From positions 1 through 33,318 of the forward strand of contig DASXQR010000037.1 in NCBI GenBank assembly GCA_036507075.1: a stretch of DNA of 33,318 nucleotides. Reading direction: 5' to 3'. Shown here piece by piece: positions 4,044-33,169 of this stretch; the first letter of the stretch is position 1, and the number at the start of each line of letters is the position of its first letter. Position numbers and translations under genes: made by a program. The notes under the pieces are model-generated. The model saw only the letters and a list, made by a program, of their open reading frames with translations, made no database searches and had not been told where the DNA came from. This DNA is from Acidobacteriota bacterium. Its GTDB lineage: Bacteria; Acidobacteriota; UBA6911; JACQSX01.

Positions 4044-4081
4044 GGTCTGTAATTTTTCGACTGAAGAAAACAAAAACCGCT

Positions 4082-4575
4082 CACGTGCACGACCACGTCA
4101 ACGTCCACCGAATACGCCCACGCGTCACGTTGGTCGTATTCAGAATTTCATCATTTTAGACAACATCGACACGATTCGAACAAGAAGTTCGCTGCCGTGC
4201 CTTAACTTGTCCGACTGCGCCAGGTTCAACACTGCACAGGCATCCAGCACCGCGCCGCACTCCATGGCTGAGCCCCTGGCAATGCCGAAATAGCGCGACC
4301 GGTCTGCCTCGCTCGGCTTTCCCACTCCTTCAGCAATGTTCTGCAAAATCGATAGAGCTGCTCGTTTTAGCTCATCCGTAAGGAAGGAGTAGCCTCGAGA
4401 AATTCTCTGCACGATGATAGCGACCAGCGCAAGAAACTCAATGGCACATTTGTAGACATCCAGTTTTTGATAGCTGAGCATTTTCGCCTCCTGGTGCACA
4501 TAACTGTCCAAGGGGCAGTTCTGCGAAAGTTTTTTTGTCGACGTAATCGTGAACTTTGACGTGGTCGTGCGCGTG
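4082..4575. mobile_element. Putative element: four-helix-bundle gene bounded by hexamer-array inverted repeats
   Basis: 4082-4108 CACGTGCACGACCACGTCAACGTCCAC matches the reverse complement of 4549-4575 at 24/27 nt. Mobility is inferred. Confidence 0.55.
4140..4481 (-). CDS. Four helix bundle protein (23S rRNA intervening-sequence protein family, Avd-like fold)
   Basis: MLSYQKLDVY..L.DELKRAALSILQNIAEG..RYFGIARGSAMEC..LLVRIVSML. RBS GGAGG before ATG 4481. Confidence 0.92.
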   Translation of the reverse strand: MLSYQKLDVYKCAIEFLALVAIIVQRISRGYSFLTDELKRAALSILQNIAEGVGKPSEADRSRYFGIARGSAMECGAVLDACAVLNLAQSDKLRHGSELLVRIVSMLSKMMKF

Positions 4576-4582
4576 GACATGG

Positions 4583-4792
4583 ACGGCTTTTTCTTTGGTT
4601 GCTGCTATTTACCTTGTGCCTGTGTGGCGAGTATGTTCTTACCACAGAGGCCCGGCCCGGCCATAGGCCGCAACCAAAGAAAAAACCGAGGACGGCCACG
4701 TGCACGTCAACGATAGACGTCAACGTAGACGTCAACGACCACGGCCACGTGCACGTGGTCGTAGCCGATAAACGTCGACGTTGACGTAATCG
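4583..4792. repeat. Back-to-back composite repeat plus an empty hexamer palindrome
   Basis: TTTCTTTGGTTGC..CTTGTGCCTGTGTGG (4589-4627) faces ACCACAGAGGC..GCAACCAAAGAAA (4641-4683). CACGTG/GTCAAC arrays at 4696-4790. Confidence 0.85.
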
Positions 4793-7624: not shown

Positions 7625-7789
7625 GAACTTTTCACCACAAAGGCACAAAGAGCGCAAAGCAAGACGTGGGGCAGGCAGAGGCCGGTCAGCTTTCCAAATG
7701 TAAACACGACAGGGGCTTTCGAAGCTGACCGGTCTCTGCCTGCCCCACGTCTTCCCTTCGTGTCCTTTGTGTCTTTGTGGTGAAAGTTC
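7625..7789. repeat. Nested palindrome: outer 9-mer arms (CACCACAAAGGCACAAAG), inner 32-bp REP-like inverted repeat
   Basis: 7661-7692 matches the reverse complement of 7722-7753 at 31/32. Outer GAACTTTTCACCACAAAG pairs with CTTTGTGGTGAAAGTTC. Confidence 0.9.
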
Positions 7790-12155: not shown

Positions 12156-12206
12156 AGCTTGGTGCCTTGGTGGTGAAAAAACTGAACACCAAGGCACCAA
12201 GCCAGA
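12156..12206. repeat. Back-to-back 9-mer palindrome (CTTGGTGCCTTGGTGGTG-A-rich-CACCAAGGCACCAAG)
   Basis: Near-identical copy at 18835-18887. Related copies at 18072-18118 and 29547-29601. Confidence 0.9.
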
Positions 12207-12412: not shown

Positions 12413-12492
12413 CTCTCCCACTCCTCCACTCCCACACTCCCCCCCTCCTCTACTCTCCCCCTCTCCCCCTCTCCCACTCTTCCACTCTCCCA
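12413..12492 (+). repeat. Unpaired polypyrimidine 8-mer array (CTCCCACT-like)
   Basis: About ten degenerate units, almost entirely C/T with periodic A. Confidence 0.8.
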
Positions 12493-12525
12493 TTTACACC
12501 ATCACCGCCACGCAGGACAACAACG

Positions 12526-13894: not shown

Positions 13895-14011
13895 GGTTAC
13901 GGGTTACGGGGTTTCGGGTTACGAGTTACGGAAATTTCCGCTGTAAAAGCGATTATCCGTCCTGACCGAAACTGGAAACCCGGAACTCGAAAACCCGTAA
14001 CCCGAAACCCG
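13895..14011. repeat. Inverted 7-mer arrays (GGGTTAC / GTAACCC)
   Basis: GGTTACGGGTTACGGGGTTTCGGGTTACGAGTTACG on the left and AAACCCGGAACTCGAAAACCCGTAACCCGAAACCCG on the right. Confidence 0.85.
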
Positions 14012-14101: not shown

Positions 14102-14569
14102 ATGATGAATAAGAGATCGAGTTTTGGACAATCCGTGCTCCTTGGACTGTTCAGTCTCATGGTGCTGATCGCAAGCCAACTTGTGCTGGCCGACGGACAG
14201 GTGGCTGAAAAGAAGCCCGGGGAGAAAAAAGTAACAGTCACTACGGTCAAGGCGCCGGCAAAGAAGTCCACAAAATCACGGGTCAAACTGGACCTGAACA
14301 CGGCGCCGGTAAAGCAGTTGATGACCCTTCCGGGTATTGACGAAGAGTTAGCCAGGAGGATCAGCGCAGGCCGGCCCTATGATTCCGTCCAGGATCTGGC
14401 ACGGGTGGGAGTTCCCGCCGGTACAATCGATGAAATCACTCCGCTGGTAAAGGTGCGGCCCCGGGGAACGCACACGATGACTCCCCCGCCGCCCTCCCGG
14501 TCACAGCAGCAGGCACCGCCGCCCCCTCCTCCGCCTCCGGCAGGATCTGCTCGCCCGCCGTCCAGGTAG
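14102..14569 (+). CDS. Secreted helix-hairpin-helix DNA-binding protein (ComEA-like) with Pro-rich tail
   Basis: LDLNTA..QLMTLPGI...A.RI..GRPY.SV.DL motif and a signal peptide. Confidence 0.8.
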   Translation: MMNKRSSFGQSVLLGLFSLMVLIASQLVLADGQVAEKKPGEKKVTVTTVKAPAKKSTKSRVKLDLNTAPVKQLMTLPGIDEELARRISAGRPYDSVQDLARVGVPAGTIDEITPLVKVRPRGTHTMTPPPPSRSQQQAPPPPPPPPAGSARPPSR

Positions 14570-16114: not shown

Positions 16115-16182
16115 AAGAGAGTCCTCAAAAAGAGGCAGATAATACAAGAGTGGCGGCTCTGCCGGAATAAAAAATGCTCCCC

Positions 16183-16289
16183 AATGCGGATTTCGGAATG
16201 CGGAATGCGGAATAGGTTAGAGATTTGGACTCGGCCTGCAAGACTCAACCTGGGATATATTCCGCATTCCGCATTCCGAAATCCGCATT
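16183..16289. repeat. Perfect 32-bp inverted repeat made of 7-mer CGGAATG units
   Basis: 16183-16214 is the exact reverse complement of 16258-16289, including the variant unit GCGGATTTC. Confidence 0.95.
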
Positions 16290-16301
16290 CGGAAGGGCGC
16301 A

Positions 16302-17220: not shown

Positions 17221-17347
17221 TTGTTCGTTGTCAGTGGTCAGTTGCCCATGGTTCGGTCTTAACGTCGAAGGTCTGAAGGTTGAAAGTCCGAAAGTCAAAA
17301 GTTTGAAGGTCAGTGAGGTGAACTGTCTTGGTGTCTTGGTGGTTAAA
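17221..17347. repeat. Stacked arrays: 7-mer (TTGTCAG), 7/8-mer (GTCNGAAA/G) and 9-mer (CTTGGTGT)
   Basis: The 7/8-mer and 9-mer parts mirror 18101-18163. 17319-17347 is also directly repeated at 18064-18092. Confidence 0.8.
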
Positions 17348-18063: not shown

Positions 18064-18163
18064 TGAACTGACTTGGTGCCTTGGTGGTAAAATTTTTTTG
18101 AACCACGAAGACACCAAGAGATTAGCTCACCCTCAGACTTTCGATCTTCCGGACTTCCGACTT
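18064..18163. repeat. Back-to-back 9-mer palindrome plus a 7/8-mer array
   Basis: CTTGGTGCCTTGGTGGT-AAAATTTTTTTG-AACCACGAAGACACCAAG, then GACTTTCGATCTTCCGGACTTCCGACTT. Confidence 0.85.
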
Positions 18164-18834: not shown

Positions 18835-18887
18835 AGCTTGGCGCCTTGGTGGTGAAAAAAATTAAACCACCAAGGCACCAAGCCAGA
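18835..18887. repeat. Back-to-back 9-mer palindrome
   Basis: Near-identical to 12156-12206. Confidence 0.9.
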
Positions 18888-19827: not shown

Positions 19828-19896
19828 TTTTCCACCACAAAGGCACAAAGATCACAAAATGTCTCACTTTGTGATCTTCGTGTCTTTGTGGTGAAA
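19828..19896. repeat. 9-mer-array hairpin between convergent genes
   Basis: CACCACAAAGGCACAAAGATCACAAA pairs with TTTGTGATCTTCGTGTCTTTGTGGTG. Confidence 0.9.
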
Positions 19897-29079: not shown

Positions 29080-29124
29080 TGAAATTAATTTCGTGATTTC
29101 TGGTGGTCGCCGGTTTAGTTATGC

Positions 29125-29538
29125 ATGAACCACCAGGACAACAAGCAAACGATCGAGCCCGTACCCTATTCATTAGACCAGATAGCAAGACAGGTTGTTA
29201 GTGCGGCCTGCAATGTGCATTCATCGCTGGGGCCGGGCCTCCTGGAGAGCGTCTACGAAGCATGTTTGGCCCATGAAGTAGGCAAACGAGGTCTGTCGGT
29301 ACGGAGACAGGTGCCTGTACCGGTAAATTACGACAACGTGCGCCTGGATCTGGGATTTCGCTTAGATTTGGTGGTTAAGGAGGCATTGATTGTAGAGATC
29401 AAGGCAGTGGATGCACTGCATCCCGTGCACTACGCTCAAATGATCACTTACCTGAAACTTACGAACCTTCGCCTCGGGCTATTGATCAATTTCAATGTTC
29501 CCTTGATCAAAGAAGGAATTCATCGAATAGCCTTGTAG
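29125..29538 (+). CDS. GxxExxY protein (PD-(D/E)XK nuclease-like)
   Basis: VHSSLGPGLLESVYEACL, RLDLVV...IVEIK, H.AQ..TYLK...GLLINFN. Confidence 0.95.
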   Translation: MNHQDNKQTIEPVPYSLDQIARQVVSAACNVHSSLGPGLLESVYEACLAHEVGKRGLSVRRQVPVPVNYDNVRLDLGFRLDLVVKEALIVEIKAVDALHPVHYAQMITYLKLTNLRLGLLINFNVPLIKEGIHRIAL

Positions 29539-29572
29539 AATGTTAAGCTAGCTGGGTGTCTTGGTGGTTCAT
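29125..29572. mobile_element. Putative element: GxxExxY gene bounded by 9-mer inverted arms
   Basis: ATGAACCACCAGGACAACAAGC (29125-29146) matches the reverse complement of GCTGGGTGTCTTGGTGGTTCAT (29551-29572) at 19/22. Mobility is inferred. Confidence 0.55.
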
Positions 29573-29601
29573 TTTTTTTACCACCAAGACACCAAGCTAG
29601 C
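29547..29601. repeat. Back-to-back 9-mer palindrome downstream of GxxExxY
   Basis: GCTAGCTGGGTGTCTTGGTGGT pairs with ACCACCAAGACACCAAGCTAGC around a T-rich loop. Confidence 0.9.
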
Positions 29602-30785: not shown

Positions 30786-31056
30786 AAGGCCGGAAGGCGG
30801 AAGGCGGAAGGCGGAAGGCGGAAGGCGGAAGGCGGAAGGCGATAAAGCCGACGACGTCTACGTGCACGTGACACCTCAACGTCCACGTCTACGATTACGT
30901 CCTCATATGGTAACCTTGGGCAACGCGTCAGCGTCGACGTTGTCGTGGACCTTGACGTGTCACGTGCACGTGGTCGGTCGTTTTTCGCTTTCCGCTATCG
31001 CTTTGTGCCGGAGTGACACTTCCAGATCGATTAAGAATCTTCGTGGCTTCGTGGCG
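30786..31056. repeat. Nested repeats: (CGGAAGG)x7 outer arm, hexamer palindrome inside, then a 13-bp motif and an orphan 9-mer arm
   Basis: Seven perfect units at 30791-30839. 30860-30893 matches the reverse complement of 30938-30971 at 30/34. GGAGTGACACTTC at 31010 and CTTCGTGGCTTCGTGGC at 31039. Confidence 0.9.
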
Positions 31057-31948: not shown

Positions 31949-32037
31949 ATTGAAACCTCTCTAAAAAGATTCGACGCAGGTAAAATAGCGAATCAAGCCG
32001 CTTTTCTGCCACCCGATTCTTGCTGTCCAGGGAAATA

Positions 32038-32200
32038 CTTATTCACCACAAAGGTTGGGAGTGGAGAGACGGCCTGAGGGCCGTCTCAGCTTGGCAGTTG
32101 GCTCGACATGACAAAGGCCACGACGCCCTTGGCGCAGCTTTGCTACGCCCGAGACGGCCCTCAGGCCGTCTCTCCATTCCCAACCTTTGTGGTGAATAAG
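32038..32200. repeat. REPIN-like element: 50-bp inverted repeats, each holding a REP-like hairpin and capped by a 9-mer-family terminus
   Basis: 32038-32087 matches the reverse complement of 32151-32200 at 49/50. Internal hairpin GAGACGGCC-TGAG-GGCCGTCTC. Confidence 0.9.
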
Positions 32201-32215
32201 CTTTTCCGGGTTTCG

Positions 32216-33013: not shown

Positions 33014-33086
33014 GGGGCCTCCTCTGTTGGACTTTAAGTTATTGCGTGTCGGGAATCCGAGTCTAACTTAATGGCGGGAAAGCTTC

Positions 33087-33169
33087 AATGCGGAATGCGG
33101 AATGCGGAATACGGAATAAAAGCTGTCAGTTGTCCGTTGTCCGTCGTCAGTTGTCCGTTGTCGGTTGTC
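33087..33169. repeat. Two stacked unpaired 7-mer arrays (CGGAATG; TGTCMGT)
   Basis: AATGCGGAATGCGGAATGCGGAATACGGAATA, then TGTCAGTTGTCCGTTGTCCGTCGTCAGTTGTCCGTTGTCGGTTGTC. Confidence 0.9.

Follow-up and report, generated by a model that had tools for sequence, protein, structure and literature searches.

The 33,318-nt stretch of Acidobacteriota DNA analysed here (the window) carries a small gene of the GxxExxY family, with a single domain of the PD-(D/E)XK fold, that is accompanied by its own tandem 8/9-mer repeat arms. About 1500 copies of these arms occupy intergenic sites of the same genome, and the gene has a promoter-like motif in common with genes for DNA uptake and recombination. By analogy with the SsnA/NTS system of Neisseria, we suggest that the gene may encode a PD-(D/E)XK counterpart of SsnA, one that would cut transforming single-stranded DNA (ssDNA) at its own hairpins. 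We rate the chances of this reading as even.

The GxxExxY gene and its arms

The gene encodes 137 amino acids, ends with a stop codon at 29536-29538 and lies, as the first-pass annotation had it, between two metabolic genes, here confirmed as an FAD-linked oxidase and a D-2-hydroxyacid dehydrogenase. It belongs to the GxxExxY/PDDEXK_3 family, matching both TIGR04256 (E 2e-43, 147 bits) and PF13366 (PDDEXK_3; E 5e-42, 143.5 bits) above their curated cut-offs of 35 and 22, respectively. Among Pfam families, PF13366 was the only match to the window gene; the GIY-YIG domain (cd10448) was absent from it, the three GIY-YIG matches of the genome lying elsewhere, and DUF559 gave no match with the query used. 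No solved structure was found to match the window protein by sequence. In the accessible text of PMC3424549, the family is listed as of unknown function with multiple transfers.

A structure model of the protein (pLDDT 95.1, from a 122-row alignment) contains the PD-(D/E)XK core. Foldseek returned no match to the model at E <=0.001, its best rows being Cas4 and phage exonucleases. In a wide structural search Cas4 SSO0001 came top (Z 8.1, rmsd 3.6, 99 aligned), with restriction enzymes scoring equally; the top matches comprised Cas4, restriction enzymes and Hjc. The modelled fold is thus nearest to Cas4 and lambda-exonuclease-type nucleases, at a level of match that is common for a shared fold. 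Residues E41 and Y44 are invariant in the 122 rows, and D81, E91, K93, Q105 and Y109 are present in at least 90% of them. The modelled core fold and the conserved acidic and lysine residues together place the protein in the PD-(D/E)XK superfamily, with E41, D81, E91 and K93 as the probable catalytic residues. Nucleases of the RecB/Cas4 type, which act on ssDNA, typically carry a QxxxY motif.

The first 22 nt of the gene (29125-29146), which encode MNHQDNK, are repeated in inverted orientation at 29551-29572, beginning 12 nt past the stop codon, with 19 of 22 positions matching, exactly as first described. The better partner for the 3' arm is nevertheless the one downstream, with which it forms a head-to-head dyad (Table 1). 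Of the further arms said to abut both sides of the gene, the outer one at 29580-29601 is genuine; the supposed degenerate left arm at 29089-29108 scores -25 on the arm profile, a level matched by 8% of 1289 arm-free intergenic windows, and was rejected in favour of the bipartite promoter-like motif of which it forms part. The start codon was also described as part of the gene's own inverted repeat. Only 16 of 126 homologous loci with arms have their only ATG within an arm, so that this feature is incidental. The five gene-less copies noted at the outset are real, with units at 12158, 14589, 17327, 18072 and 18837.

Table 1. Features of the GxxExxY locus and gene-less arm copies in the window
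Feature	Position	Strand	Remarks
Promoter-like competence-regulon motif	29080..29119	+	Score 27.9 on host-gene-only profile
Motif parts	29080-29089; 29090-29095; 29111-29115	+	A/T tract; TTCGTG; 15-nt spacer; CGGTT
GxxExxY gene, PD-(D/E)XK fold	29125..29538	+	Conserved E41, Y44, D81, E91, K93, Q105, Y109
5' forward arm	29129..29145	+	Degenerate, 15/17 to common unit; read as codons 2-7
3' reverse arm	29547..29568	-	Pairs with 5' arm (19/22) or outer arm (21/22)
Dyad loop, T-rich, 11 nt	29569..29579	.	Head-to-head dyad; typical spacer 11-14 nt
Outer forward arm	29580..29601	+	Closes head-to-head dyad of genome-wide type
Gene-less long forward-reverse hairpin	7634..7781	.	Same arm family
Gene-less head-to-head dyad	12158..12201	.	
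Gene-less forward-reverse dyad, short loop	14589..14653	.	
Gene-less single arm	17327..17343	-	
Gene-less head-to-head dyad	18072..18118	.	
Gene-less head-to-head dyad	18837..18882	.	
Gene-less short forward-reverse hairpin	19834..19892	.	Same arm family

Several other features of the window were recorded. Unrelated families of hairpins or tandem repeats occupy intergenic sites at 2489-2720, 12413-12511, 13895-14011, 16177-16295, 30844-30976, 32031-32207 and 33086-33166. A four-helix-bundle gene (PF05635) at 4065-4712 on the minus strand lies between arms of another family, with 127 genomic copies, and is preceded by the same promoter-like motif at about 4488-4537; its start is probably near 4481 and not at 4580. 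A helix-hairpin-helix (ComEA-like) gene at 14102-14569 on the plus strand has no motif upstream.

Arms across the genome and around homologues

Counted by arm pattern, the 6.1-Mb genome of the window (G000) contains 1551 arms in 943 clusters, compared with 4 arms in 3 Mb of Markov-simulated DNA. The clusters include 357 forward-reverse dyads, mostly with loops of 20-30 or 85-130 nt, 193 head-to-head dyads with loops of 11-14 nt, and 360 single arms. The arms are almost all intergenic: only 69 of the 943 clusters fall inside long ORFs, by simple long-ORF calls that cover 77% of the genome. Identical arms are found within dyads more often than in shuffled pairs (0.285 vs 0.08 and 0.249 vs 0.121). 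Dyads occupy tandem, convergent and divergent gaps at approximately background rates, with 63 of 359 between divergent genes against a background of 428 of 2143. A terminator or mRNA-end role was rejected because convergent or tandem gaps are not preferred. No fixed distance to stop codons was found, and pairing outside head-to-head dyads does not exceed that of shuffled sequence (3.11 vs 3.18). Target duplication, the hallmark sought for classical insertion sequences and MITEs, was not detected: direct repeats of at least 7 nt occur outside 3.1% of 355 dyads and outside 3.5% after shuffling.

Six GxxExxY loci are present in G000, two of them broken. The copies are mutually 38-53% identical, with no near-identical pairs. 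Each abundant arm subtype in G000 is carried by one of these loci: the subtype of C152 numbers 517 arms, that of the window 294, C83 276, C140 268, C59 179 and C145 63. The commonest subtype, that of C152, is carried by a broken gene copy.

We inspected 173 GxxExxY loci, leaving out 11 with short flanks, and counted an inverted match when it exceeded the 99th percentile of shuffles. By this measure, 126 of the 162 remaining homologues have inverted arms at their flanks (60 of 70 selected for resemblance to the query, 62 of 88 in an even phylum sample and 4 of 4 own loci), compared with 10 of 224 control genes at those loci. Homologues do have flanking arms, and the first-pass annotation's association of gene and arms survives the comparison on which it was said to depend. 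Matches in direct orientation were found at 38 of the 162 loci, and the order forward arm, gene, reverse arm at 82 of the 120 loci with a labelled arm type.

Arm type was expected to covary with protein phylogeny. Mapped on a tree of 156 core proteins, it changes 16 times as opposed to 37.7 times when shuffled, and the window protein falls in a group of 80 rows drawn from many phyla; of the 64 rows labelled there, 62 have the same arm type as the window. The tree is a quick one, of 116 columns, with many open forks and 70 rows chosen by likeness, and it establishes that arm types cluster, not that they coevolve with the protein. Among 41 relatives, which as kin are not independent, all 8 with at least five exact arms possess the gene, and each of the 24 that lack it has 0-1 arms. 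Nine of the 17 gene-bearing genomes have 0-1 arms of the window type, and arm counts range from 1 to 946 within one family.

The position of the gene is variable. None of 80 relatives of the FAD-linked oxidase has a GxxExxY gene nearby, so the gene is not syntenically fixed; fixation would have told against the original proposal. The predicted junction of oxidase and dehydrogenase with only an empty palindrome did not materialise: the dehydrogenase is missing from all 80 (65 of which extend 500 nt or more downstream), and among the relatives compared none keeps the junction or offers a precise empty allele of it. The oxidase orthologue in genome G001 has other neighbours, neither of the two genes being present. 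The dehydrogenase orthologues in G001 and G003 follow other genes but, by eye, are immediately preceded by a dyad of related arms that encloses no gene.

A 426-kb sample of G001 has 55 gene adjacencies in common with G000, 10 of which hold an arm cluster in G000. Judged by eye, the window arm type occurs at none of these 10 junctions in G001; a hairpin from a different 7-9-mer family is found at 6, another palindrome at 2 and nothing at 2. At the G001 junctions in L291, L304, L308, L311 and L323, the hairpins are from other tandem 7-9-mer families than those of G000, although both genomes belong to one family. It is as if the slot were kept while the repeat was replaced. Together with the 80 oxidase relatives, these junctions indicate that the site does not always hold the gene and that the hairpins turn over.

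A promoter-like motif shared with competence genes

The motif upstream of the gene has the consensus A/T tract, TTCG(C/T)(A/G), 15 nt, C(A/G)GTT. In the window the ATG at 29125 stands 9 nt past CGGTT, and the mRNA is therefore probably leaderless. With a spacer of 15 nt, an ATG lies exactly 9 nt on in 11 of 105 matches in the genome, compared with 0-3 at spacers of 12-14 and 16-19 nt. From their placement relative to the ATG, the two boxes may represent the -35/-10 pair of an alternative sigma factor with a leaderless start. A sigma-70 scan of the locus found no promoter.

Further occurrences of the motif lie upstream of the other GxxExxY copies, of four-helix-bundle genes and of Y1 transposases. 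When the three GxxExxY seeds were removed, the profile still gave 68 matches in the genome and 0 in the reversed genome. Of 19 genes scanned downstream of these sites, 13 are host genes, namely ssb, comEA, recA, comM, a pilin gene, comF, ERCC4, uvrD, radC, recQ, recG, dprA and comEC; the other 6 comprise one with an IrrE-like domain, one anti-sigma-like gene and four without a Pfam match (one with a weak REP-transposase match). The motif-bearing set resembles a late-competence regulon, such as that of ComX (PMC6560143). The roles of Ssb, DprA, RecA and ComM are described in the available part of PMC12378983. The SOS box was considered as the identity of the motif and rejected, since lexA lacks it.

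A second profile was built from the 13 host sites alone. It detected the motif at GxxExxY loci (5 of 6), at four-helix-bundle loci (6 of 7) and at Y1-transposase loci (10 of 12), and at none of 4 DDE, 14 tyrosine-recombinase, 34 sigma and 1 lexA loci; 31 of 3665 long ORFs were positive, and the genome gave 95 matches against 11 when reversed. Because the host genes were picked after the motif had first been seen at mobile genes, the test is not fully blind. In 3 of 5 GxxExxY copies the motif lies outside the arms, and in the window it is outside the 5' arm. In sum, one oriented motif precedes DNA uptake and processing genes at a fixed distance, as a competence-regulon promoter should, and this arrangement is kept in G001 and G003.

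Further motif sites precede genes without a Pfam match or without a clear ORF (for example C48:57114, C97:18566, C30:18390, C28:984 and 2398, and C192:81797). Several IS200-like Y1 genes (G000:C122:12838-13400, and others on C85, C107, C201 and C223) have long inverted arms of their own, TIRtron-like, and the competence motif mostly lies inside these arms. A small GIY-YIG gene without the motif (G000:C5:700-1900, minus strand) follows a tRNA-like sequence, the 3' part of which is repeated after the gene.

Beyond G000 the motif is found in few genomes. A strict pattern has 22 matches in G000, 24 in G001, 10 in G003, 2 each in G002 and G007 and one in each of five others, and none in 127 of the 137 genomes of the class. 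The motif lies before dprA and recA in both G001 and G003, and before comM in G001 and, weakly, in G006; none was seen before the genes checked in G088 and G136. Of ten GxxExxY loci in G001, G003 and G004, with one G003 fragment left aside, seven score at least 16 and one scores 9, while two control stretches in G003 scored 13.7 and 17.5; two of the loci lie directly behind a motif-bearing dprA. Broken GxxExxY genes were seen directly downstream of dprA in G001 (L349, on C383) and G003 (L350, on C73). Twelve near-identical matches of a mis-spaced pattern in G205 probably belong to a multi-copy element.

The exact motif is absent before GxxExxY genes at 158 more distant loci and at 20 loci in other families of the class. 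A looser pattern, chosen post hoc, occurs upstream on the sense strand at 8 of the 158, against 1, 2 and 0 in three control stretches; five of these 8 loci belong to one family (f30), and the pattern also precedes dprA of G088, the only positive among 8 host genes checked. A link to competence genes is also seen in the neighbourhood: comEA or comM lies within 9 of 117 GxxExxY loci and none of 80 control loci (p 0.012; counted as 7 independent cases, p 0.043). One of these two genes stands immediately upstream in L032, L042, L065, L123 and L201. Most distant GxxExxY copies sit behind a housekeeping gene. Two cassettes (L153 and L106) directly follow genes that, from their ends inspected by eye, resemble lexA and ruvB.

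Beside coaD in G000 (L344, C17:69500-74500) lie an XRE regulator, an ECF sigma factor and a zf-HC2/TPR anti-sigma-like gene, with the motif on both sides. This ECF sigma factor is single-copy in 75 of the 137 class genomes. Among 8 loci, only that of G000 has the motif before the anti-sigma gene, so that we retain it as a weak candidate for the sigma factor of the regulon.

Comparison with known systems and alternative explanations

The comparisons below refer to the accessible parts of the papers cited. SsnA is a 94-aa GIY-YIG nuclease, flanked by its own repeat, that cuts only ssDNA near that repeat; when the transforming DNA bears the repeat, transformation drops about five-fold (PMC11893778). 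The SsnA/NTS (Ssn/SRM) and GxxExxY systems have in common a small single-domain nuclease gene, its own flanking hairpin repeat, hundreds of intergenic copies, co-occurrence of gene and repeat, clade-specific variants and a link to natural transformation (PMC11893778). They differ in fold, GIY-YIG in SsnA and PD-(D/E)XK in GxxExxY, and in the repeat, NTS being one 30-nt hairpin whereas tandem 8/9-mer arms here form dyads whose loops range from 11 to about 130 nt. Cutting of ssDNA is proven for SsnA and predicted by analogy for GxxExxY, and a competence-type promoter, present at GxxExxY as a motif, is not mentioned for SsnA in the accessible text of PMC11893778. The cognate, abundant and intergenic hairpin repeat of Ssn/SRM is found here without the GIY-YIG domain; with its other fold, GxxExxY is not a member of that system. 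The same arrangement of arms and motif is seen at the four-helix-bundle genes, whose products lack a nuclease fold, so that layout alone is no proof of cutting.

REPtrons, TIRtrons and REP/BIME elements likewise place one small gene between inverted repeats, have gene-less intergenic copies and lack target duplication (PMC3733652; see also PMC3333891 and PMC8266576). GxxExxY, unlike REPtrons and TIRtrons, has neither an HUH transposase nor a GTAG or CGTC tag, and the Y1 genes of this genome have different arms. The gene enclosed by the window repeats is PF13366, with no HUH Y1 transposase between them, and window arms lie within 300 bp of none of 10 Y1 loci checked, which places the locus outside the REPtron/TIRtron and IS200/IS605 groups. 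In pneumococcus, the late competence genes of the ComX (sigma-X) regulon are similarly preceded by an alternative-sigma motif that has a T-rich stretch upstream of it, and ComX also drives "recombination-promoting nuclease or transposase" pseudogenes near a repeat (PMC6560143); the motif and phylum are different, and the pneumococcal copies are pseudogenes of another family.

The arms could instead act in RNA, pairing in the transcript so that RNase III cuts the cassette out, as with the ORF-bearing intervening sequences of 23S rRNA in Coxiella and Leptospira. These are of similar size and layout (about 430-450 nt, with a terminal stem of short tandem repeats around a small ORF), the Coxiella example being a stem-loop of 428 nt that contains heptamer repeats and an ORF for a four-helix bundle and is cut by RNase III (PMC4990558). 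The four-helix-bundle genes of the window genome have the same layout together with the motif. The window cassette, however, is not in an rRNA gene, encodes a nuclease and has no sign of strand-specific RNA pairing, and no Rfam family was found in the window. Selection for pairing in the transcript should produce more G.T than A.C pairs on the sense strand. No such excess was found around genes (124 vs 134, p 0.58) or in gene-less dyads (170 vs 172, p 0.96; 46 vs 60, p 0.21), which speaks against selection of the arms as RNA hairpins. The lack of G.T bias and the presence of dyads between divergent genes at about the background rate point to DNA that can be single-stranded on either strand, and away from the rRNA sequences, and we consider an RNA-level element improbable. 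Less probable still is the classical element of about 450 bp, with terminal inverted repeats at 29125 and 29572, that the first-pass annotation proposed. The 19/22 match and the prevailing forward-reverse order around homologues agree with such a unit, but its boundaries were not borne out: the promoter-like motif is left outside the 5' arm, the 3' arm pairs better downstream, the ATG seldom lies in an arm, and neither a target duplication nor an empty allele was found. Alternatively the gene may be a passenger, enclosed by tandem-repeat hairpins that fill gaps through slippage, fold-back or Y1 activity in trans, with the motif reflecting a host DNA-processing role unrelated to the arms. The other hairpin family at 6 of the 10 G001 junctions, the four-helix-bundle genes that have the same layout with other arms, and the 12 Y1-transposase matches of the genome are all compatible with this. 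It accounts poorly for the enrichment of arms around homologues from many phyla over neighbouring genes, for their prevailing orientation, for the clustering of arm types on the protein tree and for the absence of window arms from the Y1 loci checked, and we regard it as unlikely.

A selfish mini-element that exploits competence is somewhat more credible than the passenger, although we would still not favour it. Its nuclease would cut the arms on ssDNA and insert or home the cassette, gene-less hairpins would be non-autonomous copies like REP sequences of REPtrons or IS200 derivatives, and the competence promoter would be borrowed, as by the Y1 transposases, 10 of 12 of which have the same motif. 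The mixing of phyla in a protein tree on which arm type is clustered, the broken copies between intact arms, the widely varying arm counts within one family and the absence of the window arm type from the conserved G001 junctions would all suit such an element. It is opposed by the lack of a target duplication and of a fixed distance to stop codons, by the promoter outside the arms in most copies, by the absence of near-identical copies in G000 and by the failure to find an empty allele among relatives; moreover, we know of no strand-joining chemistry for the PD-(D/E)XK fold. The authors of the SsnA study suggest a selfish-element origin for their own system (PMC11893778), and the selfish-element reading is a close kin of the SsnA-like one and may describe its origin.

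Proposed function and significance

If GxxExxY acts as SsnA does, an alternative sigma factor would read the motif upon competence and give a leaderless mRNA from the ATG at 29125. Transforming DNA would be met as a single strand, in which the arms could fold into hairpins, and the enzyme would cut at or near its cognate arm. Such cutting would shorten homology and tune or restrict how DNA with the repeats, from kin, recombines, and new copies may be seeded when cut hairpins are, rarely, mis-repaired. Each GxxExxY clade would serve its own arm type. More tentatively, and with appreciably less confidence than we place in the SsnA parallel itself, GxxExxY might constitute a second, unrelated and very widespread family of sequence-specific ssDNA nucleases with clade-specific tandem-repeat hairpins. 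Together with four-helix-bundle cassettes and IS200-like transposases, it would form a guild of mini-elements wired to an undescribed competence sigma promoter; its members would be active, and would spread with no transposase of their own, at the very time when transforming ssDNA is taken up.

The new part is the competence motif together with the SsnA parallel. In the literature searched (subscription journals and supplements excluded), we found no description of GxxExxY with arms or a competence link, of such arms with four-helix-bundle genes, or of competence in connection with Acidobacteria, four-helix-bundle genes or IS200. The name GxxExxY was met there in papers on reverse transcriptases and on an algal virus, and the accessible parts of related repeat papers (PMC4692102, PMC4679880, PMC3733652) do not tie their repeats to a GxxExxY gene.

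GxxExxY is a large family without an assigned function, and the intergenic tandem-repeat hairpins of many uncultured bacteria have been without an explanation. The motif indicates a time of action, competence, the arms offer a candidate substrate, and SsnA provides a ready assay, so that the question of function becomes directly testable. A further yield of the motif is the map of a competence-type regulon for a lineage in which the literature searched described none, with ssDNA-using transposases tied to that regulon. If the SsnA-like reading is true, site-specific cutting of ssDNA would gain a second fold, one that offers many natural specificities, and GxxExxY would represent a control on gene exchange in soil bacteria.
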